The notes: generated by a model not told the origin, from the sequence alone. A DNA stretch of 64,000 nucleotides from Escherichia coli (GCF_030384885.1 NZ_CP128614.1); one strand, 5' to 3'. Shown: positions 7,475 through 53,969, counted from the stretch's first letter. Translations and numbers: made by a program.

Positions 7475-8123
7475 TACAAGCAGAGCAGCAGTGCTCAGAA
7501 CAATGCTTTTTTTTGGCATGGTCATTTATTTTGGTTACAGCCTGGCTTTCCAGAATACTGAGGAGCTCAAATATCAGATTACTCAGGAGGTTAATGCAAG
7601 CCGGTCCATCATATCAAATGACCGTTGGAAGTCTGTTATTGCAAATAGTGAAGCGACTTTAAATTGGTTGGTACATGACTATAAGTTAATTGACTATCTG
7701 AATACTATTCTGATCCCTGACACCAAAAAACCAGCCAGAGGTATTAACATTGTTGCTGAAAAATTTACCTCTATTAATTACACTATGGCCAAAAACATAC
7801 CCCTCTTACTTTATCAGTCCATTTTCCGGTGGAACTTAATCCTGGGGTGGCTAATCGTTTTTCTGCCCTATCTATTTGCCATGCTAGCAGATGGAATGTA
7901 CCAGTGGAAATTGAAGAGGTACGTATTTGGTAAGGTTACAGTTCAGTTTTATCGTATTTGGTTTCGAGCATTTTGGGTGATCAGTGCTTTAACGATGGTC
8001 TACCTGGTCATGCCGAATATGTCACTATTTAACAATATCGCTCAACTTTTCCCACCAGTCGCTTTATTGATACTGGGAATTGCATTGAATCGCTTGTGGT
8101 CTAACTTTCAAAAACTCATGTAA
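7443..8123 (+). CDS. integral membrane protein
   Basis: 226-aa ORF with several long hydrophobic segments (e.g. LRTMLFFGMVIYFGYSLAF, LILGWLIVFLPYLFAML); overlaps the upstream gene. Confidence 0.5.
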   Translation: MNGGKAMAADNTSRAAVLRTMLFFGMVIYFGYSLAFQNTEELKYQITQEVNASRSIISNDRWKSVIANSEATLNWLVHDYKLIDYLNTILIPDTKKPARGINIVAEKFTSINYTMAKNIPLLLYQSIFRWNLILGWLIVFLPYLFAMLADGMYQWKLKRYVFGKVTVQFYRIWFRAFWVISALTMVYLVMPNMSLFNNIAQLFPPVALLILGIALNRLWSNFQKLM

Positions 8124-19573: not shown

Positions 19574-19876
19574 TCAGCCAGGCCCGGATATAAATACATG
19601 CTCTGCCAGGTGAGTACCACTGCCCGGTAGCCGAATGATAAGTTTTGATTTCACGGTTGCAATTTCTCCCTCTGGCATCACTGCTCCACGATGCACCCCG
19701 ATCAGCTTAGCGTCTGAAAATGAAGATGCACCGGACCTGCATGAAGCGGAACGGTGCCCAGCTGAGTGTTTGTGGGCACAATGAACCGCAATTTCATGAT
19801 GGGAATGAAAGATGGCTGGTGGCCCGCTGATATGAACGCTTACCCTGCATAACGTTACTAACCACAATCTTTTCAC
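19574..19876 (-). pseudogene. possible degenerate RadC-like (JAB/MPN) remnant
   Basis: 100-aa ORF with VH...AHKHSAG, reminiscent of the RadC AHNHPSG region but with the HxHx7Sx2D signature not intact; weak. Confidence 0.2.
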
Positions 19877-19913
19877 TAAAAGAAAAAAGGGTTCCTCCGC
19901 TTTAGAGGAACCC
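19876..19913 (-). terminator. rho-independent terminator (minus-strand sense), probably the displaced hok terminator
   Basis: stem GGGTTCCTC...GAGGAACCC followed on the minus strand by a U-run (plus strand AAAAAA at 19883-19888); adjoins the IS186 insertion site. Confidence 0.5.
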
Positions 19914-19969
19914 TTTCAAAAGGTGCCGATGGCATACTAATCCACACCCTGAAAAGAGGGGGGTTGCCC

Positions 19970-21309
19970 CCATAAGCGCTAACTTAAGGGTTGAACCATC
20001 TGAAGAATGCGACGCCTCGGTGCCTCGTTAAGACGATGCCTCGCGTTCTTCAATTGCGTTTTGTAGGCTGTCAGGGATACTGTCCCACGAATGGCCACCT
20101 GTAAGCTCCAGATGACCATTTTTGTTATTCTCCACAACGAGTTAGTTCTTCTTTTCGGATCCGGCACTTCTGGGGGGGAAATCCAGCGATGGCTGGATTA
20201 TGTCGTCAATTAAAAATGCGGCGAGTAGATTAGCAAATATCCACGCTTTCGCGAGTTCAGGTTCCTTTGCACGCAAAGCATCCAGGTGCAGCAAACTTTT
20301 GAGCCGCTTAAAAGCCAGTTCAATTTGCCATCGCAGACGGTAACAATCAGCCACTTGCTCTGCTGAATATTCATCTTCCGGTAATGATGTTAGCAATAGC
20401 ACATGGCCCGCTGCTTCCAGCGTTTCCGCCTGAACTACTCGTCCTTTTCGACGATTCTCGCTGAGCAGTCGGGTTTTACTGATTAATGCTTTTTCGGGAG
20501 GAAGTGATACGGCAATGAGACGTGCCGGAAAGGGAGCTCCGGCTTTTTTATTACCTGAATTGCCTATCATTACAGTGGTTTCACCGTTCTTACCGCAATC
20601 CAGCCCGCGCAGAAAACCCATCATGTCAAAGCGCATTCCTTCTGCAGTTAACCAGCGCAATCCTCGCCAGTGAACCCGGACGATATAATCAGCTTCTCCA
20701 AAAGCAAGTGAGCGGATACATTCGGGACGCGAACCGAATCCCCGGTCAGCAATGCGTATCTCGTCTGCCGTTTGCGCAAATCGGTCCAGCCGTTCAGCGT
20801 CTCTGCTGTCGGTTAGCTCAAAATCAGTGAACTGACAGGTATGAGGATCATATCCCATATGTAGTCGCCATTCAGCGCTGCCGCCCCCGGGCGCACTGAT
20901 TGCTGTTCCATCGACAAGACGCAATCTCTTTCCGCTTGTACAACCCGTAACTGCGGCGCGTACAGCAAGTGTTTGTGCGGCAAGTATGCCAAACCAGTCG
21001 GCGGCATTCCGCAGCCGCTTCAGGAGAGCCACGTCAGATAATGTTGCAACGTCATGGAGCTGAGCCCATGCAGTGACTTCACGTAATGACATCCCCCCGG
21101 GGCCGTAAGCCAGCCCCAGACGTAGCAGAGTTGCAGCATCACGAATTTCGCGGCGGCGGGTTAGAGCCCCGGCATTACGTGCCGAAGTATCCAGTTCTTC
21201 GGGCTTACCAATATGGGCCAGAATTGCTGACCAGTTATCGTGAGAGTAATTCATCGGCACGTTAAATCATATCAGGCGTAATACCACAACCCTTAAGTTA
21301 GCGCTTATG
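19970..21309 (-). mobile_element. IS186 (IS4 family) insertion sequence
   Basis: about 1340 bp bounded by perfect inverted repeats CATAAGCGCTAACTTAAGGGTTG (19970-19992) and its reverse complement (21287-21309); flanked by a direct duplication of about 12 bp (GGGGGTTGCCCC) within a GC-rich palindromic target. Confidence 0.85.
20142..21260 (-). CDS. insL: IS186 transposase (DDE, IS4 family)
   Basis: 372-aa ORF filling the IS; N-terminus MPMNYSHDNWSAILAHIGKPEEL recognised as IS186 transposase from memory. Confidence 0.85.
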   Translation of the reverse strand: MPMNYSHDNWSAILAHIGKPEELDTSARNAGALTRRREIRDAATLLRLGLAYGPGGMSLREVTAWAQLHDVATLSDVALLKRLRNAADWFGILAAQTLAVRAAVTGCTSGKRLRLVDGTAISAPGGGSAEWRLHMGYDPHTCQFTDFELTDSRDAERLDRFAQTADEIRIADRGFGSRPECIRSLAFGEADYIVRVHWRGLRWLTAEGMRFDMMGFLRGLDCGKNGETTVMIGNSGNKKAGAPFPARLIAVSLPPEKALISKTRLLSENRRKGRVVQAETLEAAGHVLLLTSLPEDEYSAEQVADCYRLRWQIELAFKRLKSLLHLDALRAKEPELAKAWIFANLLAAFLIDDIIQPSLDFPPRSAGSEKKN

Positions 21310-21332
21310 GGGGTTGCCCCCCTCTTTGTCAG

Positions 21333-21491
21333 CTACTTACCGGATTCGTAGGCCAGGATAGCAAATACCTCCCTTGTTCCGTCTTTCATCCGCAACTCGC
21401 AAAGCGAGTTTCGTGTGAGCCAGGTGAATATCAACAGCGTTAAACAAACTATTAATATGCACAAAACAATGGGTTGGTTCGGCATTTTCAT
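21333..21491 (-). CDS. hok: Hok/Gef-family type I toxin
   Basis: 52-aa product [52 protein letters not shown], close to plasmid R1 Hok as recalled; the listed 71-aa ORF is an upstream extension. Confidence 0.7.
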
Positions 21492-21589
21492 GGCCTTCTT
21501 CTCCTTGCATTTAAGCAGGCAAGAGGCTACGCTGTGTGTGACTAGCATACAGGGGCCTCGGGTTGTACTGACCCCAGAAAGTTGGACAG

Positions 21590-22441
21590 TTAAACACGAG
21601 GCATATAGGTCTGATTCCGATATTCAATTGGAGTCAGACCTTTTAATTTCAGGCTAATTCTTCTGCTGTTGTAGTATTCAATATATTCCGTAACAGCATC
21701 CTTCAGCTCGCTTATATTACTGAACTCATCAAGATAAAAACACTCCGACTTTAAGGTTCCAAAGAAACACTCCACCACAGCATTATCCAGACAATTGCCT
21801 TTTCTGGACATGCTTTGTTTAATACCATGTTCTTTAAGGATATTTTGATATCTTCTCATACGATACTGCCATCCCTGGTCAGAGTGCAGAACAGGATGCT
21901 CGTGAGGATTAAGCTTTTTGAATGCCTGATCGAGCATATTCTCGACCATGTTCATCACTGGTCTTTCCGAAAGGCTGTAAGAAATAACTTCGTTGTTGAA
22001 GAGATCTATTACTGGAGACAAATACAGCTTGCGCCCATTGACTGCAAATTCAGTAACATCGGTAACCCACTTCTCGTTTGGCCGCGTAGCCTTGAAATCT
22101 CTTTGGAGAACATTGGGGGCGGTTTGCCCTACCTCTCCTCTGTAAGAGCGGTATCGCTTGACCTTAATCGCTGCCTTCAGTGAGAGGATTCCCATCAGGC
22201 GCTGAACAGCTTTATGGTTAATCTGTTTCCCTTCTCGATGAAGAGACAGCGTTACCCTACGGTATCCGTATCGGCCTCTATTCTCATGATAAATCTCACC
22301 AATACGCTTTTTAACGTCCGCATACTTGTCAGGCTTGCTGAGAGCCTTTAGATGGTAATAAAACGTACTGCGCGGTATCTCCGCAGCCCTGAGAAGCTCA
22401 TCAAGAGGATAAAACTGCCTTAGCTCGTTGAGTACTTTCAC
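21590..22441 (-). CDS. insK: IS150 transposase OrfB (DDE catalytic domain)
   Basis: 283-aa ORF overlapping orfA in the -1 frame; integrase-core motifs ([16 protein letters not shown]) typical of IS3 OrfB. Confidence 0.85.
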
Positions 22442-22959
22442 TTTTTCGTGGGATGAGCTAAGGCTTTCAGCTTTTTTAGATACACAAGCCGCGTTTCAAG
22501 AAATCGAACTTGCCTTTCAAGATCCTCAATGCGTCGGTCTTTTGACAGCTCCAATGCTGATGCCGCTTTTTCTGGATCAACTGATATTGCAATGTTTCTT
22601 TTGGTGCCAATCTTGAGCGCGCGTAAACCAGCTTCTCCGCGCTCTTCATAAACCTTCAGCCACCTGGCTACAGAACCACTACCAGCAAGCATAAAGTGAG
22701 CAGCAGCCTGATTAAGGGACATGTGCTGCTCGATCACCGCTTTCACGACCTTAATACGCAACTCAGGATCAGCACTAACACCTTTAGGTTTGGGAATTAA
22801 ACCTTTTTCTCCATGTTTTTCATAGAGGGCAACCCATGTCCTGACCTGGGTTCGGGGGACACCAAAACGTGCCGAGATGATCCTGTAACCATCATCAGTA
22901 GTGAAGTAGTGATTCACGACTTCAAGGCGCTTTTCAAAAGGGTATTTTGGCTTTGACAT
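22438..22959 (-). CDS. insJ: IS150 transposase OrfA (HTH)
   Basis: 173-aa ORF MSKPKYPFEKRLEVVNHYF... recognised as IS150 InsJ from memory. Confidence 0.85.
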   Translation of the reverse strand: MSKPKYPFEKRLEVVNHYFTTDDGYRIISARFGVPRTQVRTWVALYEKHGEKGLIPKPKGVSADPELRIKVVKAVIEQHMSLNQAAAHFMLAGSGSVARWLKVYEERGEAGLRALKIGTKRNIAISVDPEKAASALELSKDRRIEDLERQVRFLETRLVYLKKLKALAHPTKK

Positions 22960-23291
22960 ATCAGGGGCTATTCCATTTCATCGTCCAACAAAATGGGTGC
23001 AGTACAGGTTAATTGAAAAATTACTCGGGGCTTTCTGCTTTTACCACAGTCAAACAGTGTTACCGCTGGCTGGGGCAAAAGCCTCCAGCACCAGCGTCAT
23101 TATATCACTCTGCCCTGATCAGCCAAACACCCTGCCTGCATAAATCATTGATTTATAATTTATTTGACATGAGTCACTTCCGGTTGTCGGAGACAGTCTT
23201 TTTACACTAAAGAAAAGGGTAACGGGCAGCTGCTTGGTCGGAACATACAGTGCAGTTCCTGCCCGTTTAATTTCCGGATGCAATGGTAGGA

Positions 23292-31220: not shown

Positions 31221-33176
31221 TTATACGACCTGCCTGACCATCCTCATCAGAAGGCGGTTTAACAGTCCTTTCGCTGTCGGGCGATTGCTATCGACATAGT
31301 AAAAACCTGTTTTGGTCGTACCGTGAGCACTGCTCAGCACCCTCAGTTCCCAGATAACGTCACGGATAACGCCGCCATTTTCTGGCTTAAGGCATTCAGA
31401 TAAATGGCGCATGAAACGAGCTCTTACGGCACGGTAATAGCGGAACTCCTCTGGCTGGTTAGTATTTTCTTTCACCCGGAGTCGCTGGTTACACAGAGTT
31501 AGAACTGCATCCATCATTCCCGCCTTCAGCTTCGCCTGGATCGCACCTTGTTGCTGTTCCCTCTCACCTTCGAGTAACGTTAAGATTCTTTCTCCGAGTG
31601 CCGTCTTGTTGTGTACGTGCAACTGTACACAGGCAGCTACGCATGCCCAGAATCTGAACTTTTTTATCTGTCCACGCAATTTCCGGGCTACAACCTGACG
31701 GTATGCAGTATCGCTGAGTATTTTAAAACGCCGACTGGCAACCAGCTCTGGAAGCGACACTCTTTCGCCTATCCCCAGGCGGGAAAAGGTTTGTCCCCGT
31801 TGTGCGAGACGATGATAGACAGCGCCCTTCCCTTTTGAAATTCGGACCGCGCCATAACGAAGAAGATACTGAGCAGCAGTCGTTGGAGTAAACTCACCGT
31901 CAGCGATGCTCTGGCGTAACCCGTCGTATTCATGCCAGATAATCCAGGACGCCGTATCTTCTTCAACAGTCAGCTCATCCTCTTCCTCGAATGCCACGAC
32001 GACAGAACTGCTCTCTCCGGTCTTTAGGCTACGTGAAGCCCTGGGGTCAGCCTGCCCGTCAAAATAGGTCATCAGCGGCAACGTATCAGTCAGTCCATCA
32101 TAAGCTGTACCGAACCGGCCTCCGGGCAGTTTCATCCAGAGTGGAGCTGGCATTGGTGTACGGGCCACAGGCAGCATGTCAGGCTCATCCTCAAGAAGGT
32201 CCAGATCGGCCTCTTCCCAGACTCTGCGATAGATCTCAATTGCCCGAAACGGGCGAGGGTTGAAACAGTGCAACGACCAGAGGAAATCAACGTGGATCAC
32301 GTTTGCTTCATGTACAAGCCGAAATTGTGGCTCAGCCATACGACGGTTATAAGCCGTATCGTCCACCTCGCCGGAAAGTAGCTTTCTGCGATGCTTTGCC
32401 GCACGTCTGGCTTCAACATAATCAAGGCTGCAACAGACATGAAAAAGACGTTCAGTCAGGGACGAAGAAAAGATATTGGGTTGAAGACGCACATACCCGC
32501 CTTCGAACACTTTACGACCGATATAATCCCGCAGGCTCCAGTCGTACTGGATCTTAGAAAGAAATCGCTGAAGACGACTTAGGCCTGCCTGATAACCATA
32601 TTTCTCAGGGTCAGTGCGAAGGAGCGTTTCCATTGAATGGTCAACCCCTACGGCTGTGCAAAGCGAGCACCCATATCTAGCCCCACAAGCTGAGGTTCGC
32701 GTGGGTTTCTCCGGCGACCAGATACACTCTCCGGTGGCGTCTTTATAAAGCGTTGCCAGGCTGAAGTTATCCGGCATAAAGCTTGGTAAAGGGAAGCGGG
32801 ATTCGGAACCACAGGCCATTAGAAAAGACCAGATGTCCTGAGTGCGCCACTCCTTTACTGGATAGAGTTCACCACCGTGCTCAGTCAGGGTTACTTTCCT
32901 CGCCTGCCCTCCCATTTTGAGGATATTTCCGGCCCTTCGGGCACTTTCATCATCCCTGGAGCCCAGCATCAGGCATACCCTGCTTCGTACGGATGCCGGG
33001 GCGTTTTTTAGATAACGAGCTTTGGCCTTGCGCAGGGGGGCGATTTTGTAGTCACAAACTACTACCACACTGTTACAGTGTAGAAATTCTGGAAGGCGGT
33101 GCCAGTGTTGGTTTAGGATAATGTTAACAATTTTTCCAGAGTTTTCAGAGAAAAGAGATTTTGAGTGACAAACCAC
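31221..33176 (-). pseudogene. PAPS-reductase-family (DndC/IbrA-like) gene lacking its N-terminal P-loop region
   Basis: 651-aa ORF with GSRDDESARR, EWRTQDIW and CGARYGCSLC motifs of the PAPS-reductase fold but no SGGKDS P-loop; in-frame stop 6 codons upstream of the annotated GTG start (read directly), so the N-terminal part is not encoded here. Confidence 0.5.
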
Positions 33177-33418: not shown

Positions 33419-34525
33419 TCAAGCTTCAGCTAGAATAAACTTCCGTTGCTCATCTTCGCATTTATAACATGCGAAATATTTGATTGTTTCCATATCACCA
33501 GTCACATACTCATCACAATGTGGACAGTTAACTGCTGACCATCCTCTATCAAAGCATGAAACACAACTCCACTGACCTTCAATATAGAAAACTGAATTTG
33601 GAGCGTGCTGACATACGTGACAACCAGCGACACATTCGCCACCTTCCTCCCACCAATCATCACCCGTTACATATATGTCGCGACACAATTTTATTAAGAT
33701 ATTTGTGGTGATCTCATGAGCACATTGTGGACATTTATTGATGTCAGGACTGAAAAATTCGAATGGTACTTTACAGTTTGGGCAAGGCAAAGTATCAGTG
33801 ACTTGCTCTACCGCAACGCCCTGCGATTCGCAAACAAGACATTCATAATCATCTCCCCATTTATGAGTATCATTAACTTTACCGGCTTCAAGGCCACATT
33901 GACGGCACTTAACTATTTTAATTTTTTTTAATCTTAAGACGTCAATTTCCTTTGAAAGCTCATTGAATCGGGTGCTGAGGAACTCTTTTTGTTGCAGCAT
34001 TCTCTTATGCACACGCTCAAACTCTTCCTTAAATTTAATAAATTCATCTTTCCATTCAATAGTGAGTAAATTATATAAATGGTGCCATGAAGACCATTGT
34101 TGAGCTACAACCCCTGCTTTATTAGCTTGAGCGCTTGAATATCCAGTGTGTGCAAAGTGAACAATTTGGTTCCTATGCGCACCTAACGTTCTGAACTCAT
34201 CAAGGATACTGTCATCAAGTTTAATGCCAATAACAGTTTTAAGACGTTGAACAGCGTCACTAAAATACACAGAATTAAAGTCACCAACGCTAAATTTTTG
34301 TTTATTAGCTTTGCCAGGATCATCTAATATTAAAGTCCAATGTTCGAGCATTAACCTTGCTTTTAAGAAAAGTTCAATGGCTGTATAGAAATCAACAATC
34401 GAATTTTTGGGTCTTATATTTAAATCATCAATTGACGACTCAAGAAAATCTATAGCATTTATCACTAAAGAATCAAAAAGTTGTTCATTGCTCTGTACTG
34501 TTTGCTTAATGTATGTGCGTGCCAT
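33419..34525 (-). CDS. multi-Cys zinc-ribbon protein, unknown function
   Basis: 368-aa ORF; helical N-terminal half; C-terminal half has at least six CxxC pairs (CRQC, CLVC, CPNC, CPQC, CHVC, CVSC, CPHC, CYKC); very AT-rich coding sequence. Confidence 0.5.
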   Translation of the reverse strand: MARTYIKQTVQSNEQLFDSLVINAIDFLESSIDDLNIRPKNSIVDFYTAIELFLKARLMLEHWTLILDDPGKANKQKFSVGDFNSVYFSDAVQRLKTVIGIKLDDSILDEFRTLGAHRNQIVHFAHTGYSSAQANKAGVVAQQWSSWHHLYNLLTIEWKDEFIKFKEEFERVHKRMLQQKEFLSTRFNELSKEIDVLRLKKIKIVKCRQCGLEAGKVNDTHKWGDDYECLVCESQGVAVEQVTDTLPCPNCKVPFEFFSPDINKCPQCAHEITTNILIKLCRDIYVTGDDWWEEGGECVAGCHVCQHAPNSVFYIEGQWSCVSCFDRGWSAVNCPHCDEYVTGDMETIKYFACYKCEDEQRKFILAEA

Positions 34526-36582: not shown

Positions 36583-37053
36583 TCAATGATTATTTTTTTC
36601 TTCTAATTTTTTTATGACATTCCCATGCTTTTTACCACACCATGCTTGTTTCCTACCCATAATAAGCAAAACCATTGGCTCGGTCGCTTTCAGTCCGGTT
36701 CGCCAAGACCTTAGATCAGTACTTGATGGCTGTGGGAAATCTTCGGGATGCGTATGCCATTCGCCCAAATAGACTAGAAAACCGTCTGATTGCTGAAATA
36801 AGTCATCCACTTTTTGCTGGTGATGTTTGCTTTTTCTTTCTATTCGTAATCGCGATCTTATATCACCTGCGCCTGGTTCTGATATGTGGGTGATGACAAT
36901 GTGTTTCCCACGACGTTCTCCAATAAGGATTCCTCCTGCCTCGGTACTGGCATGATGTAATTGACGATATAAATACAACCGCTGCACAACATCACTCATG
37001 ATGACGACATGATTGTAATCATCATCGATAAAAACTAACTCAGTTATGTTCAT
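36583..37053 (-). CDS. cap3: CBASS Cap3 (JAB/JAMM isopeptidase)
   Basis: 156-aa ORF with EWHTHPEDFPQPSSTD (HxHx7Sx2D JAMM motif); overlaps the cap2 stop by 14 bp. Confidence 0.75.
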   Translation of the reverse strand: MNITELVFIDDDYNHVVIMSDVVQRLYLYRQLHHASTEAGGILIGERRGKHIVITHISEPGAGDIRSRLRIERKSKHHQQKVDDLFQQSDGFLVYLGEWHTHPEDFPQPSSTDLRSWRTGLKATEPMVLLIMGRKQAWCGKKHGNVIKKLEEKNNH

Positions 37054-38809
37054 TGCAGATAGGACAGTTAGGCTGATGTGGCAAAAACTGAGGTTTCAGT
37101 GAACGTCCACCTTCTAACATATGCTCGTTGTAAGTCCATTTGAGGTCAGGCTCAAGAGTACTCAAGACTGCCTGTTGAGCCAAAGATGCCGTTATATTAC
37201 TCACCGCCGCATCATAAGATGTGTATGTGCTACCACAACTTTTATTTTTTTCACTTGAGATATCGAGGTTGTAAAATCGGGAATCGATACCATTATGGTA
37301 TTTTGCTGGATTAGTAACCATACATCCATAGCAGCTTCGGCCATCATCGATTAAAACTTTGGATGCTCGTCCATTACCATCATTGAAGGCGTGGATAATA
37401 ATAGGTCTTTGCTCACAGGGAATCTGTCTTACGATAGCCGCAATACGCTTGGAAACAGGAGGTCGACCTGTTGCATCGATAATAATGTCATATTTTTTCA
37501 TAACATCAATACTGATGGGGAATTGCTTATAAAATCCTTCTACTCTGGTCTGTAAATGCACAGAGTCTTGAAGTTTTGTTGCGAGTGAGAGCGCTTTGGA
37601 CCACCCAAAATCATGTGAAGGTAAAATGTGACGACCAAAATTACTAGGACGGTAGATATCATCATCAAATAAATGCAGTAAACCTTTCCCACAACCGGCA
37701 CCGTTTCGGAGTAACAATTCTGCAATATACCCACCAATGGTTCCGCAACCAACTAAAGCTATACGCTTATCGGATAAGCATTCTTTGCTTCTCCTTTGGG
37801 CATTTCGGCTAAGGAGGGTTGCCATATCAGCGCGAACCACACCCAATCGTTTATATGAGGCGCATACATTTTTACCAGCTAACAATGTGGCAAGTTTGGA
37901 CGTTGATTTTTTAGCTGATCTCTTGTGCCTTCTGAAATCAACAGCGTTAGTATTTAACTCAATATAGATGGCAAATATATCTTGATTGAAAATGTCGAAT
38001 AAAAAAATATATCTTTTCTTCCCCTCTGTTGTGATGTAGTGAACCACTCTGTCCCTGGCATTATGGTCCGCATTTTCTAGCCAGTCCAGTAATTCGCGGA
38101 ATGAAGTCGGTGGCCATTTCATCCCAGCAAGACGATTAGGGTTTACAGAAATATAATGAGTGTTGATAGAATAATTTTTCAAAGATTCTTGACGAAGGTA
38201 TCTTTGATTAAGCCATTTTTTTAAAATGGTTTCAGAGTCCTCGGGAGAGGATTCTTGGACAGTTATATATTCTAGCCTGGGAGAACCATCAGGAAATGTT
38301 GACTCTGAAAACAGTGTCTTAAGTCTGATCCCGCGGCTTGCTTTTGATAAAATATATAAACTATCACTAGGTCGCCAGTAAGTTGCAAATTCACCTTCGA
38401 GTTCTCTCTTATCATTCAGGCCATTAGTAGCGGCTAAAACTGAATTAATCAGTGTTCGGTGAATCTGGGCATCGACTTCTTTGTACGTACCCTCAAGGTT
38501 GTTTGGATCCCAATCAGCTTCCAACTGCTCTACATAACAGAGAATTCCTTCTTGGCTTATGTGAGGCATAAGGCGATCTCTGAACTTTTCAGGCAGATCA
38601 ACTATGCAAGCTAATGGCAGTTCCGTAAAAGGATCTGGCCGAATAACTAGTGCTACATTGAAATTTCCGGCTTCGGTTTCATATTCTTTCGTATAATAGC
38701 CTTTCAGGCGTTCCTGACTGTGTAGGAACGCCTTTTCAGGAAGTTTGCGGGCTAGCGTATAGCGATACCCGCACTCTATCATCATTTTATGGAGCCTTCC
38801 TTCCTCCAT
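37040..38809 (-). CDS. cap2: CBASS Cap2 (E1/E2 ubiquitin-like conjugation enzyme fusion)
   Basis: 589-aa ORF; Rossmann/ThiF-like ALVGCGTIGGYIAELLLRNGAG in the C-terminal half; start overlaps the CD-NTase stop. Confidence 0.75.
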   Translation of the reverse strand: MEEGRLHKMMIECGYRYTLARKLPEKAFLHSQERLKGYYTKEYETEAGNFNVALVIRPDPFTELPLACIVDLPEKFRDRLMPHISQEGILCYVEQLEADWDPNNLEGTYKEVDAQIHRTLINSVLAATNGLNDKRELEGEFATYWRPSDSLYILSKASRGIRLKTLFSESTFPDGSPRLEYITVQESSPEDSETILKKWLNQRYLRQESLKNYSINTHYISVNPNRLAGMKWPPTSFRELLDWLENADHNARDRVVHYITTEGKKRYIFLFDIFNQDIFAIYIELNTNAVDFRRHKRSAKKSTSKLATLLAGKNVCASYKRLGVVRADMATLLSRNAQRRSKECLSDKRIALVGCGTIGGYIAELLLRNGAGCGKGLLHLFDDDIYRPSNFGRHILPSHDFGWSKALSLATKLQDSVHLQTRVEGFYKQFPISIDVMKKYDIIIDATGRPPVSKRIAAIVRQIPCEQRPIIIHAFNDGNGRASKVLIDDGRSCYGCMVTNPAKYHNGIDSRFYNLDISSEKNKSCGSTYTSYDAAVSNITASLAQQAVLSTLEPDLKWTYNEHMLEGGRSLKPQFLPHQPNCPICNEHN

Positions 38810-40110
38810 CAGCCGCTTACCATCGTGGTGTTAATTTTTACAGGCGCCTGCTCCTTAGACGGGGAGATTTGAAATGCAGGAGCCGCAGCAATTGAAGTTA
38901 TTAACGAGGCATTAGTTACTCGTTTTCCAAACGCATTGTTTATCTTACGTAATGCTTCTTCCCTGCTACTTGAACTCTCTGCATCAAGCAAAATCCCCTC
39001 TAAATTTCTCATGGTTTCAACGATGGTTCTCTGATGTACGTTATGATCGCATTCGGCAGGGAAAAGTAACTTTTCATCAGTATCGTCGGGACTTTCCAGA
39101 CCGCGACAGAATTCATTAGGTAGTAATCTTGCAACTAGTTTCATCGTCCCTGTGAGGTCTGAACCATTATGTGCTTCTCTGTCGAGGATGTTTACAACTG
39201 CAGCCATCAGGCTAATAGATGAAGGACCTCCCACTTCCCATTGGGCATCTCTCCAGGCCTTCATAAAGCGGCAAATTGAACGGAGATGACCGCCAATACG
39301 CTTGCAACTATCATTAAACCAATCTTCAACAATTTTGGGGTCGCTGATCGACCACCTTCTTGCACCCTGACGCAGCGCTAAATTAACTTTGTCAGGTTCT
39401 ACTAGATATGCCTCGCGCATATCCATGTTTGCTGATAAAGACTCGAACATGGAGTCGGCACTTTTTATGATGTGTGCTGAATCGGCTGCAGTTTGTTTGG
39501 TCTGAAATTGCTCTTTGGGGATCGCATACATCGGTACGTCGATGTGTGTTTTCTCGTGAGGAATTTTGATGCGTCCGCAGGTGTTTTTTTCTTCATATAC
39601 CCATCCATCGTTTTCAGCCTCTAACGATTTCAGTGACGTATCAACGAGCAGAAGAAGTAAGGTGTGCCCAATACTGGGTTCGGATTCAAAGACCGTCATT
39701 GGCATGTAGGTGCCGTCATCGATATCCATTTCCTGACCCGGGTGAAAAGGTCTGTTTAACGTATCGTATTGAAAACTCCCTTGGGTCCAGAAGCGAGGTT
39801 GAAATTTGATGAAGTCATCACGAGCTACATCTTCCATTTCAAAAATGAGTCGAGCGAGAGTCTCACGGTCTGAGGGAGAGAGGTAGCGAACATTAGTTTG
39901 CTCCAGTTTAAATCTAACGCTTTCAAGCGTCAGAGTTTGCTTTCTGGCGTCTGTAGCAATTTGACGAGCTTCTTTAAACACATCCCTCGTTCTTTCACGG
40001 ACTTTCTGGCGAAGTGCTTTCAGTTTGTCGGATTCAGTCTTACCCAATTTTAGTTTACTGATTAAGCCATCCACACTATGGCTGTAGTAATTGTTAAAAT
40101 CCCAACGCAT
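38809..40110 (-). CDS. dncV: CD-NTase, DncV-like cyclic dinucleotide synthase
   Basis: 433-aa ORF; NTase motif QGSFQYDTLNRPFHPGQEMDIDDG; long stretches match Vibrio cholerae DncV as recalled (MRxxWNFxxYY N-terminus, RFWTQGSFQYDTLNRPF, C-terminal NxAFGxRVTN...STMVSG). Confidence 0.85.
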   Translation of the reverse strand: MRWDFNNYYSHSVDGLISKLKLGKTESDKLKALRQKVRERTRDVFKEARQIATDARKQTLTLESVRFKLEQTNVRYLSPSDRETLARLIFEMEDVARDDFIKFQPRFWTQGSFQYDTLNRPFHPGQEMDIDDGTYMPMTVFESEPSIGHTLLLLLVDTSLKSLEAENDGWVYEEKNTCGRIKIPHEKTHIDVPMYAIPKEQFQTKQTAADSAHIIKSADSMFESLSANMDMREAYLVEPDKVNLALRQGARRWSISDPKIVEDWFNDSCKRIGGHLRSICRFMKAWRDAQWEVGGPSSISLMAAVVNILDREAHNGSDLTGTMKLVARLLPNEFCRGLESPDDTDEKLLFPAECDHNVHQRTIVETMRNLEGILLDAESSSSREEALRKINNAFGKRVTNASLITSIAAAPAFQISPSKEQAPVKINTTMVSG

Positions 40111-41180
40111 CAGTGGATCTCCTGCGCATTCATGCGCTTAAAGGGTTTTGCGGGAGTAGTGAAAAAATTCTTAAGCTTCTGATCTTGAGCGAACTCAACA
40201 TTGGCGAGCTGCCTTCCCCTTGCGCTTAAATTTTCAAGGGAACTCTTCGTGGCATTATCCAGGGTGATATCACTGGCTGCTTCATTGGGGATAATTTCAT
40301 CCAGGTAGATGTAGTTATCCACCGCGTCATGGAGCATAAGCTCACGCTGTAGCATATTTTTATGAAGATGCTGGTTAGCTGTCATGGTTGTAAGCACCAG
40401 CCGTTTTCCCATACCCCAGAGACGACAGTAGCCATTCCACCATGTTTTGCTCAACAACTTTGGACTAAGTGAATACTCTTCACCAACAGTACCGATATTA
40501 AGTATATGTATGTCTTTATGGGTGACGCTGAAGTCAGAATTCATATCCCTGAAAACTTCCAGAAGTCCTATGTAGCTGGGGTTGTTTGCGACCAGACCAC
40601 CATCGGCAAAATATGCGCGGAGATCCTCACAATAGTGTGGGGAAAAATACGTTGGCGCGGCTGAGGTTGCCAGTGCGGCATCTATCAATTTAAGAGGCCC
40701 ATCACGAGTAAAATCTGGGTTGTGTGGTGTCTTGAAAAACTGCGGTTTTCCTGTTGAAAGGTTTACTGCCGGGATCATTACTCGCCGGGTTAGGTCATTG
40801 AATGTGGTTTCAGCCCCAATCATTTCTTGAATTGTTTCGCGAAGAGGATGGCTGCGGTAGATAGGAGCACAAAGTGATCTAAGCAAGTTGGTCAGGGACC
40901 ATCTTTTGGGAAAAATGTCATTCGCCCTATCGAAGAACACTCGTTCCAGCTCACGGGCACTTTTTCCTGTAGCAAGGCCGAGAGCTAATATGCCGCCTAT
41001 TGATGTCCCTGTAATGAGGTCAAAATAATCGCCAATTTTAATATCCTGATTAGGGTATTTGCTGGCAAGTATCCTCTCAATCTCAGAAAGGACACTGATC
41101 GTAAACATTCCCCTGGCCCCCCCGCCATTAAGACTTAGTATCCGCACGCCATAGTGATTTCCTGCACTTATGTCAGACAT
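40110..41180 (-). CDS. capV: CBASS effector CapV (patatin-like phospholipase)
   Basis: 356-aa ORF with patatin motifs GGGARG (oxyanion), GTSIGG (GxSxG nucleophile) and DGG; stop overlaps the dncV start. Confidence 0.85.
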   Translation of the reverse strand: MSDISAGNHYGVRILSLNGGGARGMFTISVLSEIERILASKYPNQDIKIGDYFDLITGTSIGGILALGLATGKSARELERVFFDRANDIFPKRWSLTNLLRSLCAPIYRSHPLRETIQEMIGAETTFNDLTRRVMIPAVNLSTGKPQFFKTPHNPDFTRDGPLKLIDAALATSAAPTYFSPHYCEDLRAYFADGGLVANNPSYIGLLEVFRDMNSDFSVTHKDIHILNIGTVGEEYSLSPKLLSKTWWNGYCRLWGMGKRLVLTTMTANQHLHKNMLQRELMLHDAVDNYIYLDEIIPNEAASDITLDNATKSSLENLSARGRQLANVEFAQDQKLKNFFTTPAKPFKRMNAQEIH

Positions 41181-43646: not shown

Positions 43647-44216
43647 ATGAAGTCTGCAGTGAAGTTGCACCCTTATATTTATAATTTGTTGATAGAAAGA
43701 GATTTTGATGAGTTCGGTGCTATCCATCTCAGGGACGCTTTGCTGAAGATTACAGATTCATATGCTGATGTAACTGAAGCCAGAAAATTCATCCGCCGAC
43801 AACTTATCCGGCTGGAGGCATTGGGCTTCATTTTTAAAATTGAAAATAGCAGTGGGCGTCCGAAGATCCTGTACAAGAAAACGGAAAGCTTCTATTCAAC
43901 GACTTTCATACCAAGAAAATTGCCAAGTAACTCGCGCCTGGCTGCTGTGCCCGAAAATGTGAAACTACACGTTTTGGATGTCGATCTGTTCTTAATGGAC
44001 CTGACAAAAGAAAAAACTGTCCATGAGGCCAAACTTGCCGTCATTCTGAGTGAAATTGAAGAGTACCAGTCTCTTATGGAGCGTTTTCCCAGTAGACGGA
44101 GCTGCTTTATTGAACTCCATCAGCACGCAAAAAATCAGTCCGCCGCTTTGCTTGGCAGGGTTACTGCTTTATCGAAAGTGCTAGGTCAGCTTAGCGATGG
44201 GGATTGCGCATGCTGA
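43647..44216 (+). CDS. hypothetical protein, first gene of the helicase operon
   Basis: listed ORF 43539..44216; likely start is ATG at 43647 (MKSAVKL..., RBS-like GGAAG upstream) since the upstream part overlaps the divergent XRE gene; no catalytic motif recognised; 13-bp overlap with the helicase gene. Confidence 0.5.
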   Translation: MKSAVKLHPYIYNLLIERDFDEFGAIHLRDALLKITDSYADVTEARKFIRRQLIRLEALGFIFKIENSSGRPKILYKKTESFYSTTFIPRKLPSNSRLAAVPENVKLHVLDVDLFLMDLTKEKTVHEAKLAVILSEIEEYQSLMERFPSRRSCFIELHQHAKNQSAALLGRVTALSKVLGQLSDGDCAC

Positions 44217-45598
44217 GGGAGTGGCAGAAAGAATGCTCTGAAGCAGCGCTAGAAAAATATCAATCTGGATCGCCGCACTTTCTATGTCTTGCCAGTCCTG
44301 GTGCAGGAAAAACCGTGATGGCTGCTGAAGTTGCCAGGAAAATGCTGGAGCTGAAACTAGTAGATCTCATCCTATGCTTTGCACCTTCATCTGTGGTGGT
44401 TGCATCCATTGAAAGTACTTTCTCCCATATTCTTCAAAGGAACTTTAATGGTGGTCTTGGTGCAGTAGGTGCTGCGTATACTTATCATAGCTTGATGTAT
44501 TTCGATAAAAGCTTCTGGAAGTCTTTGCAGATGCATCGGGTATTAGTTATTTTCGACGAAATCCATCATTGTTCTGGCGATTCGCTGGATAATGCTAATG
44601 TGTGGGGCGGGGAAATCCTTTCTCAAGTTCAGCAATGTGCCAGTTACTCTTTGGCACTAACAGGGACTCCATGGCGAACTGATAGTACTCCTATAGTGCT
44701 CTCAAATTACACTGATCCGGATGGGGAGATCTGTTGTGACTATGTATATGGACTACATGAGGCTATTGTCGATGGTGTTTGTCGTAAACCTAAAATCGCC
44801 TTGATAAACAGCAATAATTTAGTATATTCATCAAAGGATAATGTTCAGTTTTTTGGTTCCATCACAGATTTCCTGAGTGAAACCGTTGCTTCGTATCAAT
44901 CAATAATTTGGCATCCAGAAGCAATGAAGTATGTACTAGAAGCTGGATGTAAAAAACTTAACGAAATACGCAAAGTTAATTCTGATGCGGGTGGTTTAGT
45001 TGTTGCTTCTTCAGTCGAGCATGCATATAAGCTACTGAATATTTTGGAAAAAGAGTTTGACCAAACAGCGATAATTGTGACGTACCACGATCGAGATGCT
45101 TTGGCTAAGATTGGATATTATCGGCAATCAACTACAGAATGGATTGTTAGCGTTGGTATGATTAGTGAGGGCACAGATATCCCCAGGCTACAGGTCTGCT
45201 GCCATTTGAGTTCTGTCAAAACAGAACTTTACTTCAGACAAGTATTGGGCAGGATATTACGGGTGAATCAGAGTGAAAATCAGGAAGCCTGGTTATTTAC
45301 AATGGCTACAAATGAACTGACATTATTCTCAAACAGATTGGCCGAAGATTTACCTGAAGATTATAAAGTTATGCAACAACAATCTGATGATTGGTCATTC
45401 CCTACAATTGATTCTCAGTCTATGCCTCCAGAGTTTGTGCGGAAAAATGGTATATCTAAAATAAAAGAGATTGATTTAGAAATGGATATTGGTGAAATAA
45501 CTACATCGTCACCTACGATTTCAAGTCAAACAAAACAACTAAAAATGGGCTCAATGCATCAACAAGTGATAGATGCATTTTTATTTTCAATTATTTAA
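44204..45598 (+). CDS. SF2 DExH-box helicase
   Basis: 464-aa ORF with Walker A ASPGAGKT, motif II IFDEIHH, LTGTPWR, and motif VI FRQVLGRILR. Confidence 0.65.
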   Translation: MRMLREWQKECSEAALEKYQSGSPHFLCLASPGAGKTVMAAEVARKMLELKLVDLILCFAPSSVVVASIESTFSHILQRNFNGGLGAVGAAYTYHSLMYFDKSFWKSLQMHRVLVIFDEIHHCSGDSLDNANVWGGEILSQVQQCASYSLALTGTPWRTDSTPIVLSNYTDPDGEICCDYVYGLHEAIVDGVCRKPKIALINSNNLVYSSKDNVQFFGSITDFLSETVASYQSIIWHPEAMKYVLEAGCKKLNEIRKVNSDAGGLVVASSVEHAYKLLNILEKEFDQTAIIVTYHDRDALAKIGYYRQSTTEWIVSVGMISEGTDIPRLQVCCHLSSVKTELYFRQVLGRILRVNQSENQEAWLFTMATNELTLFSNRLAEDLPEDYKVMQQQSDDWSFPTIDSQSMPPEFVRKNGISKIKEIDLEMDIGEITTSSPTISSQTKQLKMGSMHQQVIDAFLFSII

Positions 45599-45992: not shown

Positions 45993-46433
45993 TTATTTTA
46001 TTCTTACTATCTGGCCTTGTTTTAAAGCTTTTATCTCTTGTTCCAGCGCTTCAATACGTGAACGTGCAACCCTCAGCGCATGGGAGAGCTGATGATGTTC
46101 AGCCGCCATCACTTCCAGACGACGTTTCATATCAGATGCTTTTACACGGTACTGAATTTTCACTTTACGCTCTTGGTTAAATTTATGTCGCAGGGCTTCC
46201 TGTGACTGATGAGTTAGCCTGCCCTGAGGGGATATTTTTAACCGCAGAATTTCCTCCTGGACGCGTGACTTAAATGCCCCGTAGTAGTAACAGGTTCCGT
46301 TTCCCAGCCCGGCCTCCTCTTCAACAGCACGCACCGACAACTTTCGGTTGTCAGGGATACGTTTTGTCTGACCATCAAGGATCCGTTGTAGTGCAGCTTC
46401 AAGTTTAAGGAGTGTATTTTCTGATTTGCTCAT
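45993..46433 (-). CDS. small coiled-coil protein downstream of the recombinase genes
   Basis: 146-aa ORF overlapping the stop of the 720-aa gene by 4 bp. Confidence 0.45.
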   Translation of the reverse strand: MSKSENTLLKLEAALQRILDGQTKRIPDNRKLSVRAVEEEAGLGNGTCYYYGAFKSRVQEEILRLKISPQGRLTHQSQEALRHKFNQERKVKIQYRVKASDMKRRLEVMAAEHHQLSHALRVARSRIEALEQEIKALKQGQIVRIK

Positions 46434-48592
46434 ACGCCTGTCACCTTAATGGGATGTTCATATGTGTCATAGCCAATCCCATGATCCTGCATAACCCGTT
46501 CCGCAGCCCGGATTTGAGTGATACAGTGGGCATACTCACTGATGCTTAGATCCGTCTGTTGCTGAAGATACATTATCAAAGCATTATGACGTTGCTGCCA
46601 CCACATGGCCTTATCCGTATCGATAATGCTTCCACCGCTACGACAATCCACGCAGAATGCAGGGTTGACCACACCATCCATATCGCAGTCATAGCCGTTT
46701 TTGCAGTAACTATGTAGCGTTCCATGCAAAGTAAGTCGTTTTTCCCTGACCAGTCGATAGAGATTATCCCAGCTACTGTAGATCACAGGCTTATCATTAC
46801 GCATAGCTAGAATGGCTTTGCCAAAACTTCCGCTGAGTTGACTATCCCCGTTAAACCAGCTGTCAAAAAGACTAGTTGTCTGTTCGAGCCTTGCTTCATT
46901 CAGTAATTTAATCAGTTCGCTGTCCACCTGTATTGATTGTAGCCGTGCTTCAACAGCACCGTTCCCATACCATTCACTCATTCGCAGGCTGAGGTGTTTA
47001 AACTGTTGTTTGATTGCGATGGGGTGTCCGAGCTGGTTACGTACGGCAAAGCAGGCGAAAGTTCTTCGAAACTGATGGGTTAAAAGGGGCCAGGCCTCTC
47101 CTGTTCTGATCTTATCTTCTATAGCCCCCCTGTCCCGAGGGTTAAGCTGACGGCACTCTGCGAGTGCCTGTTTATCAACAATAGCACCCACATGTCTGGA
47201 AAAATTTTTTAAACGGTCGTTCCACTTGCTGCGTGAAATGAGGACAGGCAGGTTTTTTCTTTGGTACTGGCTGAGCCACAGATTTCCTGCTGTCTCAGTA
47301 AGCGTATCAGACTGCCCTGGGTCGTTGCTGTGAACCGCTATTTTTAACAGCTGTTCACGAGCACACGCGCTGAGAGCCGTCGCAAGCGATATGGCTTTTT
47401 CAACAATAGGGCTTGCCAGCCATTCTTCATTTTTTTTCCCGGCAGCCAGTTTGTGGGTTGCTGCGCTTACCGAGTGAAAATCCTGTCCATTAATGGTGTA
47501 GGTGTGAAAACTGTCCACATGCAATTCAAATATTTCGCTGACTCTCATTCCTGTGAAAGCACCACAACAAATAAAACAGGCTGCCTGAAGTTGAGCACGA
47601 AAACTGACGAGCCAGTTACCGTCTGCTGCGCTACTGGGCAGGAGTCCTGTTCCGGTGAGATGGTTTTTGATTAGGGTATTTTGCGACCGGGGTGTCGCTT
47701 TATTAATTTCTTCTACATATTCTTTTGAACATAATTTCCCCTGTCCGTTAGTCAGCCATGTCCACTTACCTGTAAGTATTTTATAGTCAACAACGGCACG
47801 CCCGATATCATAATTAGACTGCAGTTCACGTTCTAGCTGGGCTAGTGTTTCTCTGTGGGGCCATGCAAGCTCGACAAGTCTAACGGCTTCTCCATAGAGT
47901 ATATTTGCTATTGCCTGGGGGATGGCCAGGGTTTGCCTGTGTTCTGCTTTATTTTTAGCTGACAGTTTTTTGGCTGTCTGTTTGTAGTTCAGCTGTGGCA
48001 GGTCAAGCTGGAAAGGAAGCCATGAATTTAGTCTTTCGACTGACTGTAGTGCAGAGAAAATCAATTCAACAGTTCGCTTACTAAAGGCTTCACGTTCGAT
48101 ATCGTTTTGTAGCTTTTGCCATATCTCGGGTTTATTGAAGTCAGACAGGCACGTGCTGCCACTATGCAAAAGCGTTAATAAACTCTTTTTTAACCCTAAA
48201 TTGAATCGGGAGGTCAGTGTTGACAGCTTGCAGTCTTTTCCGGAGTGATAATTTTGCTCAAATATCCATCCATATACGATAAGCTTCGCCTGAAGGAGAA
48301 GCGCCGGAGCGGACTCCAAATAGGTAAAGTTAAATTCACGCTGGTTTTTATCCGTTCCCTTATCTGAAGCAAAGGGGCTACAGTCCCAGCAATTTTGACC
48401 AAAATATGCTCGCGTGATGTTATGTTTATCGATACATATTGGGAGCTTATCGAGCGCAGACCAGTTTTTGTTTTTTATCAGAAGTAAAATATCTTCTGTG
48501 GCTCCATACGTCAGAGCGTCTTTATGAAATGAGTTCAACAGAATAGCCATAGTGATCCTTATGTCATATCTGTGCTTTGCACATCTGACCAC
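46430..48592 (-). CDS. tyrosine-recombinase-like protein (third of three tandem genes)
   Basis: 720-aa ORF with AFTGMRVSEIFEL (box I Arg) and LTHQFRRTFACFAV (HxxR) in the C-terminal half. Confidence 0.55.
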   Translation of the reverse strand: MVRCAKHRYDIRITMAILLNSFHKDALTYGATEDILLLIKNKNWSALDKLPICIDKHNITRAYFGQNCWDCSPFASDKGTDKNQREFNFTYLESAPALLLQAKLIVYGWIFEQNYHSGKDCKLSTLTSRFNLGLKKSLLTLLHSGSTCLSDFNKPEIWQKLQNDIEREAFSKRTVELIFSALQSVERLNSWLPFQLDLPQLNYKQTAKKLSAKNKAEHRQTLAIPQAIANILYGEAVRLVELAWPHRETLAQLERELQSNYDIGRAVVDYKILTGKWTWLTNGQGKLCSKEYVEEINKATPRSQNTLIKNHLTGTGLLPSSAADGNWLVSFRAQLQAACFICCGAFTGMRVSEIFELHVDSFHTYTINGQDFHSVSAATHKLAAGKKNEEWLASPIVEKAISLATALSACAREQLLKIAVHSNDPGQSDTLTETAGNLWLSQYQRKNLPVLISRSKWNDRLKNFSRHVGAIVDKQALAECRQLNPRDRGAIEDKIRTGEAWPLLTHQFRRTFACFAVRNQLGHPIAIKQQFKHLSLRMSEWYGNGAVEARLQSIQVDSELIKLLNEARLEQTTSLFDSWFNGDSQLSGSFGKAILAMRNDKPVIYSSWDNLYRLVREKRLTLHGTLHSYCKNGYDCDMDGVVNPAFCVDCRSGGSIIDTDKAMWWQQRHNALIMYLQQQTDLSISEYAHCITQIRAAERVMQDHGIGYDTYEHPIKVTGV

Positions 48593-53396: not shown

Positions 53397-53969
53397 CTAC
53401 ACTAACGTGTCATGGTAGGTTGAGCACTGACGGGTTGAAGAATTAGTCCAGGTCGGAAGTCCACGTCCAGTCAGAATGCGGCCTACCCAGCTCTGCGTAA
53501 GAGACGGTTGGGCGACAAGGACTGTGACCGGTAGCTGGTGTTCAGCAATGAACATTCTAAGCTGGTTGAGAACCTGTGAAGCCTGATAGTGCATCTCAGG
53601 GTTTTCGATCAGCGTATCGGACATCTGAATGAAATGATGTTCGCTGATATTTGTGCCGTTACGTACTGCCCTGATCAATGCCATCAGAAATAGGTGAAGA
53701 AGAGAATGGGAGTCTTTACCGCCACTGTATCCCACGCACATCGTCCATCCGTCCGTAATAGCCTGATAAATAGCAGATGTGGCTGACGTGACCAGAGAAG
53801 AAAGACTCACAGTCTCCTTTTCATCGGTATAGTTCAGATCGGCATCGGTTGTCAGGGTCTCCCAAACATCAGCCCATTTATCATGTTTCAAAATGGCAGC
53901 ATTAGCCGCCTCAGGAAAAATAACTTCTGAGGGTAATTCAAGGAATGAGTCACTTTTTTCAATAAACAT
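53397..53969 (-). pseudogene. N-terminal fragment of a PAPS-reductase-family (DndC/IbrA-like) gene
   Basis: 190-aa ORF with P-loop YSGGKDS and DT/PE motif (SDTLIENPE) but none of the downstream fold motifs; those are found in the 31221..33176 ORF. Confidence 0.5.

Follow-up and report, generated by a model that had tools for sequence, protein, structure and literature searches.

A stretch of 64,000 nucleotides (nt) of Escherichia coli DNA (GCF_030384885.1, NZ_CP128614.1), referred to here as the window and numbered from its first letter, contains a toxin gene of the hok/sok type wedged between two complete insertion sequences (ISs), IS186 and IS150. The 254 bp between the two elements contain the hok open reading frame (ORF), which is intact in the ORF listing, encodes 52 amino acids and is located at 21333-21491 on the minus strand. 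Its product matches the Pfam family PF01848 HOK_GEF (E = 7e-18, residues 8-48 of 52) and thus belongs to the Hok/Gef family; 36 of its 52 residues (69%) are identical to Hok of plasmid R1. A mok-equivalent ORF of 71 amino acids (21333-21548, minus strand) is in frame with hok. Its ATG at 21548 is preceded by a GAGG motif 8 nt upstream and corresponds in the alignment to the mok start of the R1-type locus and to that of K-12 hokC, and the frame stays open through to the hok stop codon. A mok start that lies in the antisense target region and an ORF that overlaps hok are hallmarks of a hok/sok locus. In plasmid R1, mok is out of frame with hok. The window instead follows the K-12 annotation, in which mokC is in frame with hokC and both share a common stop codon. 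The 52-amino-acid hok ORF begins with the conserved AAGGAGAAGAAGGCCATG, as in R1-type hok. The Prokaryotic Genome Annotation Pipeline (PGAP) calls a Hok protein of only 39 amino acids from an internal TTG, together with a 'DUF5431' pseudogene in another frame (7834-8011 of the compared plasmid sequence), and the toxin is under-called in the deposited annotation.

On the 3' side of hok lies a complete copy of IS186 (IS421) of 1339 bp at 19971-21309 on the minus strand, recognized by its inverted repeats, length, identity and PGAP annotation. The terminal repeats (CATAAGCGCTAACTTAAGGGTTG, 23 bp) are perfect, the element is 100% identical to K-12 IS186A, and its transposase ORF (20142-21260, same strand as hok) is intact. 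It is flanked by an 11-bp target-site duplication, GGGGTTGCCCC, found by repeat comparison, with a hok-proximal copy at 21310-21320 and a distal copy at 19960-19970 that represents half of a GC hairpin past the hok stop codon. These are the properties of IS186 within the IS4 family: a length of ~1.34 kb, 23-bp perfect ends and a 10-12-bp duplication at GGGG(N6-7)CCCC. The hok stop codon is separated from the IS186 end by 23 nt, and the target was the GC hairpin 12-23 nt past the stop codon. An earlier note on this DNA had given a spacing of 24 bp and had rightly located IS186 between the hok coding region and its terminator.

On the 5' side, a complete IS150 of 1443 bp occupies 21564-23006 on the minus strand and reads from the hok leader towards mok/hok. 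It is 98.8% identical to K-12 IS150 and is assigned to IS150 of the IS3 family by its length, its imperfect ends starting from TGTACTG, its 3-bp duplication, the frameshift overlap between insA (22438-22959) and insB (21590-22441), both intact and on the minus strand, and the PGAP annotation. Repeat comparison locates the target-site duplication GGT at 21561-21563 on the mok side and at 23007-23009 on the leader side. The distance from the hok ATG to IS150 is 72 nt, compared with 73 bp in the earlier note, whose positions for the Hok-family ORF and both elements agree with the present ones to within 1-2 nt. IS150 entered after nt 86 of the mRNA, 15 nt upstream of the mok ATG and directly before the mok GAGG motif, and on the opposite strand the insertion interrupts the Sok stem within its 5' arm. 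The minus strand carries insA/insB, mok/hok and the IS186 transposase gene.

The ancestral locus was reconstructed in silico by removing each IS together with one copy of its duplication, which yielded an IS-free sequence of 1305 bp. This sequence is found uninterrupted and 100% identical in IncHI2A plasmids such as pM160133_p1, and in 70 PLSDB records at least 80% of its length is present at one place without interruption. The Rfam family RF01794, with a gathering score of 59, covers the hok leader as far as the hok AUG. The IS-free allele scores 81.1 bits and the ancestral locus is thus a member, whereas the window contains two half-matches, of 46.7 bits at 22930-23093 and of 34.4 bits at 21489-21643. 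A whole-window Rfam scan at the gathering threshold gave no match, RF01794 being missed because the leader is split. By these scores, the window holds a disrupted hok/sok locus that lacks an intact structured leader.

The individual parts of the module were assigned by aligning R1-type hok/sok, IS-free K-12 hokC and IncF hok with the reconstructed locus; the R1-type reference was an IncFII plasmid encoding a Hok protein 100% identical to the R1 Hok sequence. The alignment places the -10 box, the 5' end GGUGCUGGAGGC, the Sok stem-loop (AAAGCCCCG...TTAACC), the mok GAGG and ATG, the hok Shine-Dalgarno sequence and ORF, the post-stop GC hairpin, fbi and the terminator. The hok promoter (TTGGCT-16-TATAAT, with TG before it; 23099-23126, minus strand) has 10/12 matches in a promoter scan, its -10 box aligns in the R1-type, hokC and IncF loci, and it is now aimed at the IS150 left end and insA. 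The displaced 5' leader of the hok mRNA (23007-23092, minus strand), assigned by the Rfam half-match and the fold, starts with GGUGCUGG, which corresponds to tac, and makes up the first half of RF01794. Promoter and the first ~83-86 nt of the leader are consequently stranded at 23007-23126, beyond IS150.

The antisense gene is bisected by the same insertion. The reconstructed Sok RNA of ~64 nt is predicted to have an unpaired 5' tail of ~9 nt ahead of a stem-loop and a U-rich tail. IS150 cuts sok ~23 nt past its inferred start, along with the sokT region of the leader, and displaces the 3' two-thirds of the gene; the 3' stem-loop arm and the U-rich tail now lie at 23010-23045 on the plus strand. 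The putative sok promoter (TTGCAT-17-TACGCT, 21505-21533, plus strand) was placed by positional homology to the R1-type locus and is below the threshold of the consensus scan. It is followed by the presumed first ~23 nt of Sok (~21541-21563, plus strand; from R1-type homology and the Sok fold), which are severed from the stem-loop. What has remained contiguous are the mok translation start, the hok ORF, the putative sok promoter and these ~23 nt.

At the other end, IS186 shifts fbi and the terminator 1.35 kb away from hok. The candidate fbi, UCGGCACC (19922-19929, minus strand), pairs with the mRNA 5' end in the minimum free energy fold and aligns with the R1 fbi AAGCGCC. The native rho-independent terminator (19876-19917, minus strand; a 14-bp stem at 19885-19917 and a T-run to ~19876) was found by a terminator scan and by R1-type alignment, and marks the 3' end of the reconstructed mRNA of 414 nt. 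In the predicted minimum free energy fold of this mRNA, nt 1-8 are paired with nt 368-375, which would correspond to the tac-fbi closure known for R1 hok mRNA; in the window, the two partners are 3.2 kb apart.

The earlier note had proposed that both regulatory ends of the hok mRNA are interrupted. This is borne out, with promoter and 5' leader beyond IS150 and fbi and terminator beyond IS186. Its further assumption, that the region struck by IS150 carries the promoter, the mok start and the sok target, holds for the displaced promoter and the severed sok and sokT, but the mok start has stayed with hok. In the alignment with R1 and chromosomal hok loci, the mok start lies between the two elements, sokT is cut by IS150 and fbi is past IS186, and an arrangement with promoter, mok and fbi all between the ISs is absent.

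The locus sits on an IncHI2 conjugative plasmid and not on the chromosome, as is evident from plasmid identities, plasmid typing and gene neighbourhood. Positions 1-33053 of the window are 100% identical to pTBMCR421. The 4.1-kb stretch used for comparison is 100% identical in at least 23 complete E. coli plasmids, pTBMCR421 among them, and at least 80% of its length lies at a single place in 24 complete E. coli genomes. Related records are typed as IncHI2A, MOBH and conjugative, and the hok locus is located ~15 kb from mobI/mobH/traD, among small unannotated genes.

In its ancestral form, the module resembles R1 hok/sok (parB) and the R1-type loci of IncF plasmids, with a Hok protein of 52 amino acids that is 69% identical, and the same order of promoter, tac, Sok target and antisense stem-loop, mok start, hok Shine-Dalgarno sequence and ORF, GC hairpin, fbi and terminator. 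Unlike the R1-type loci, the module of the window is in three pieces, and the R1 post-stop hairpin (GGCGGGC...GCCCGCC) is devoid of the GGGG...CCCC motif that is present in the window's ancestral hairpin.

The same two IS species are found in K-12 at hokC (gef) and hokE, which carry IS186, and at hokA, which carries IS150, in each case near but outside the ORF. There, IS186 occupies the homologous post-stop hairpin and IS150 the sok/leader region. In contrast to the window, the K-12 loci are chromosomal and have one IS each, the IS150 at hokA is reversed and has no visible duplication, and the IS186 at hokC is likewise reversed relative to that of the window. The literature treats K-12 hokA, hokC and hokE as inactivated by an IS150 or IS186 that lies near the ORF without entering it (Pedersen & Gerdes 1999, as cited in PMC6733600 and PMC7337300). 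In both E. coli and K. pneumoniae, hotspots of mobile-element insertion have been reported close to hok/sok genes (Durrant et al., bioRxiv 10.1101/527788).

The double insertion itself has counterparts at other hok loci. Chromosomal hokC of E. coli H7, 65COLEC and WCHEC005237 contains IS150 with an ACC duplication just before CGAGG and IS186 in the post-stop hairpin, and in H7 both elements are oriented as in the window. This hokC differs in being another hok paralogue (18/52 residues identical) and in its chromosomal location between dnaJ and nhaA. In the H7 record NZ_CP010171.1, the IS186-hokC-IS150 arrangement was returned at two coordinates, ~1,499,227 and ~2,148,198, which may reflect a duplication or an assembly problem. 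The K. pneumoniae plasmid pKp30E-NDM-1 (IncFIB/FII) carries ISKpn8 1-2 nt off the homologous IS150 position and in the same orientation, and IS186 in the post-stop hairpin, oriented as in the window. It differs in plasmid family, host and hok allele (84% DNA identity), and its duplications are 4 bp for ISKpn8 and 10 bp for IS186, as opposed to 3 bp for IS150 and 11 bp for IS186 in the window.

The position of IS186 is accounted for by its published target motif. IS186 targets GGGG(N6/7)CCCC in either orientation, and 54 such sites are present in the E. coli genome (Lee et al. 2016, PMC5009759). The ancestral post-stop hairpin of hok, GAGGGGGGTTGCCCCCCTC, is the sole GGGG(N6-7)CCCC site in the 64-kb window. 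The homologous hairpin is also occupied by IS186 in K-12 hokC, K-12 hokE, E. coli H7 hokC and the IncF plasmid pKp30E-NDM-1, and the element in H7 hokC is oriented opposite to that in K-12 hokC with an identical duplication. At the IncHI2 hok locus, IS186 occurs in both orientations with the identical 11-bp duplication (e.g. in pSTM6-275), and with or without IS150. Since all four states of the locus and both IS186 orientations exist, several independent IS186 events are required. One plasmid, pDR162-CEF-A, has one G fewer at the junction between IS186 and its duplication (window position 21309). Either a misread G-run or a separate IS186 insertion with a duplication of 10 bp could account for this; the title of Sengstag et al. 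1986 states that IS186 duplications vary in length at one target.

The position of IS150 is likewise recurrent. In the following junctions, given in the hok sense with the duplication bracketed, the IncHI2 plasmids of the E. coli lineage have IS150 at ...CAATTA[ACC] / [ACC]CGAGG, and those of the Enterobacter lineage have ISKpn8, which is 94.4% identical to IS150, at the same junction. Chromosomal hokC contains IS150 at ...CTATCA[ACC] / [ACC]CGAGG, and IncF pKp30E contains ISKpn8 at ...CATTAA[CCCA] / [CCCA]CGAGG. IS150 of IncF pA0086, which has an R1-type hok, lies 10 nt farther upstream with [TTC] as duplication, while IS150-family elements adjoin GAATGAGGCC in Superficieibacter electus and ACCTGAGGC at two loci of [Erwinia] mediterraneensis. 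In all of these junctions the element reads from the leader towards mok and lies within one stretch of ~11 nt of the sok stem-loop, where at least nine hok loci have been hit by IS150-family elements. The IncHI2 site is also occupied by a second IS150 variant (p4281_EMB). The orientation is common to 9/10 IS150-family insertions at hok loci, the exception being K-12 hokA, with the opposite orientation and without a duplication, and an inverted IS150 at the IncHI2 hok site was found in at most one of 72,556 plasmid records. In a collection of one genome per species, 4/6 IS150-family right ends abut a hok leader, a small sample, because draft assemblies collapse IS copies and only six right ends were recovered. 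The IS150-family site in the hok leader is a narrow and oriented hot spot.

Two further sequences concern this site. In [Erwinia] mediterraneensis, tandem hok leaders lie at 92-245 and 638-789 of the compared sequence; the first is cut by an IS150-family element and scores 43.8 bits against RF01794, and the second is intact with 104.6 bits. A 454-bp contig of Methylobacillus sp. MM3 joins an IS150 right end to a hok-type leader in the K-12 hokA orientation. Its flank seems close to the K-12 hokA leader, and the contig is probably a contamination of that assembly from E. coli K-12.

The frequency of each state was estimated in PLSDB by junction-spanning queries, which sort records into coverage classes and do not call junctions, so that the counts are brackets. 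At the IncHI2 hok locus, both ISs are arranged as in the window in 56 records (at least 99.6% identity), and IS150 is combined with an inverted IS186 in ~68, i.e. ~125 plasmids contain both elements with IS186 in either orientation. The IncF pKp30E double insertion comes on top of the 56 records. IS186 alone is present in 16 records in the orientation of the window and in ~36 in the inverted one, IS150 alone in ~164 to 326 (rank bracket), and the locus is intact in 70. At chromosomal hokC, both ISs were found in 248/5,426 complete E. coli genomes, irrespective of how IS186 is oriented. The earlier note had suggested that two ISs at one hok locus are unusual. With ~125 plasmids, 248/5,426 genomes and the IncF case of ISKpn8 plus IS186 in K. 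pneumoniae, such double insertions are in fact commonplace. IS186 occupancy is alike with IS150 (~124 of 290-450) and without it (~52 of 122); although these figures are rough, their similarity argues against a second insertion that depends on the first.

A third, distinct route of toxin loss in IncHI2 plasmids is seen in pA-CRECL421 of Enterobacter hormaechei. At ~2440-2560 of the compared sequence, hok is absent exactly from its ATG on, and unrelated DNA by an ISNCY-family transposase gene abuts the retained promoter, leader and mok start.

The explanation favoured here, with a probability of roughly 0.78, is that an IncHI2 hok/sok type I toxin-antitoxin module has been taken apart by two insertions that occurred independently and were guided by the target preferences of the respective elements, and is non-functional for plasmid addiction. 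IS186 entered the GGGG(N6-7)CCCC hairpin past the hok stop codon and parted the ORF from fbi and terminator. IS150 entered the 5' arm of the Sok stem-loop just before the mok Shine-Dalgarno sequence, parting mok/hok from promoter and tac and bisecting sok. In the R1 system, killing by hok/sok needs a full-length mRNA that is stable and locked, its slow processing at the 3' end, by which fbi is lost, and an unstable Sok RNA. Because promoter/tac and fbi/terminator are each more than 1.3 kb from the ORF and sok is cut, this killing mechanism should be unable to operate in the window. The 5'-3' lock and the processing-dependent delayed activation would be inoperable, so that plasmid-free cells would not be killed, and the intact toxin ORF would probably be silent or weakly transcribed via IS150 read-through.

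Several points weigh against this explanation. The loss of the addiction function is deduced from the anatomy of the locus and from the K-12 precedent. K-12 gef, i.e. hokC with IS186, is reportedly still transcribed and antisense-regulated (PMC3562002), which means that IS186 alone does not abolish expression. Promoter, IS150, mok/hok, IS186, fbi and terminator are all on one strand and in order, and a long read-through transcript is possible, as is residual hok expression by read-through from IS150. The hok ORF is unaltered in the variant double-IS plasmids compared; an undecayed ORF is expected if the insertions are recent, yet it would also be compatible with a retained function. Finally, no description of a mechanism for the IS150-family hot spot was found in the literature.

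Selection could produce a recurrence of this kind without any target preference, if a hok/sok knockout benefits the host or the plasmid, for instance by reducing leaky toxicity. Disruption of hok/sok by mobile elements has been suggested to be a common adaptive strategy (Durrant et al., bioRxiv 10.1101/527788), and a report on the long-term evolution experiment lists hokB/sokB among the common targets of selection (bioRxiv 10.1101/027086). In IncHI2 plasmids, IS150-bearing alleles outnumber intact ones (IS150 only ~164-326 versus 70). Parallelism involving IS150 at hokB/sokB was reportedly described by Woods et al. in 2006. The literature search retrieved no report on IS150 at hok of IncHI2 plasmids, nor on IS150 with hokB. 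Selection, however, predicts insertions of many IS kinds scattered over promoter, ORF and leader, whereas two exact positions are observed, with the IS150 family in one orientation and IS186 exactly on its own sequence motif. A second insertion, moreover, strikes a locus that is already broken, and the IS186 occupancy is similar with and without IS150 even on rough figures, while the database frequencies mainly reflect the clonal spread of successful plasmid lineages. Adaptive inactivation is therefore an unlikely explanation of the pattern.

Still less probable is that the insertions have left a rewired but working module, in which a transcript from the hok promoter runs through IS150 into mok/hok, a chimeric Sok RNA composed of its own 5' tail and a hairpin from the IS150 end represses mok, and IS150 gains an external promoter. 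The arrangement of hok promoter, insA/insB, mok/hok and IS186 transposase gene on the minus strand agrees with such a module, as does the retention of the mok Shine-Dalgarno sequence and ATG, the inferred sok promoter and ~23 nt of the Sok 5' end. A plus-strand hairpin of 15 bp followed by a T-rich run (21607-21641, 43 nt into IS150) could end a chimeric Sok RNA of ~100 nt, and 9/10 IS150-family insertions at hok loci share this orientation. This proposal is entirely predictive, however; the insertion of 2.8 kb of IS sequence prevents the tac-fbi lock from forming on the same scale, the sok promoter scores as weak against the consensus, and the orientation bias is equally explicable by an asymmetric target. 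A chimeric antisense RNA that starts at the sok promoter and ends at the 21607-21641 hairpin is speculative.

An assembly or chimera artefact, in which repeat collapse placed both elements beside hok, is refuted, although IS copies are a classic source of misassembly: the target-site duplications of both elements are perfect, dozens of complete plasmids from E. coli, Salmonella and Klebsiella that were sequenced independently show the identical arrangement, and every intermediate state as well as the IS-free locus is also found in plasmids. A composite transposon around hok was likewise rejected, as IS150 and IS186 are from different families, have unrelated ends and possess their own duplication each.

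The explanation in terms of two target-directed insertions can be extended, with considerable doubt, to a specific association between IS150-family elements and hok/sok loci. IS150 and ISKpn8 might land preferentially, and in one specific orientation, in the hok/sok leader, in the Sok 5' arm just upstream of the mok motif YGAGGC. Insertion in this orientation would put the transposase genes behind the constitutive hok promoter. It would also leave a chimeric Sok RNA that keeps the toxin silent, so that such insertions would be safe and hence common. Recognition of the landing site may occur via sequence or structure, and an identity of 10 nt, CACGAGGCAT, may be relevant. This sequence is present in the subterminal right end of IS150 (window positions 21594-21603) and recurs in the R1-type leader, where it covers 10 nt around the mok Shine-Dalgarno sequence. 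Once IS150 has inserted, the two copies of CACGAGGCAT are in inverted orientation ~35 nt apart, which could be chance (rough expectation ~0.1) or be linked to target choice. A target resembling the IS150 terminal repeats was also considered, but apart from this subterminal 10-mer the resemblance is weak and no claim is made. If the association held, the double-IS locus of the window would be the product of a specific relationship between an IS and a toxin-antitoxin system, not of random damage.

Outside the hok locus, the window differs from pTBMCR421 by a segment of 20.4 kb (33054-53417), which is absent from this otherwise identical plasmid and splits a gene of the DndC-like PAPS-reductase family (31221-33176 and 53397-53969, minus strand). 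The segment encodes a type II CBASS set with phospholipase (40110-41180), cGAS (38809-40110) and a Cap2-like protein (37040-38809), as well as a HEC-08 candidate (33419-34525), a helicase-like ORF (44204-45598) and a three-gene operon without a family match (46430-51679). Terminal inverted repeats are not obvious at its ends, and its GC content of 0.42 compares with 0.46 for the remainder of the window. Overall, the segment resembles a defence island.

The locus is a further, plasmid-borne case of the kind described for K-12 in 1999. The plasmid and cross-genus examples add to that observation and sharpen it to two precise hot spots, and some freshness lies in the precision, the orientation and the cross-genus recurrence of the IS150-family site. 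As the same sites are hit repeatedly, by IS186 both ways, these insertions are highly homoplastic, and IS150 and IS186 at hok are poor phylogenetic markers for plasmid typing. Gene callers label the remaining ORF as a 'Hok family toxin', but judging from its anatomy the addiction module is probably dead in this plasmid lineage, and it should not be listed as a working stability system when the toxin-antitoxin modules of IncHI2 resistance plasmids are catalogued.

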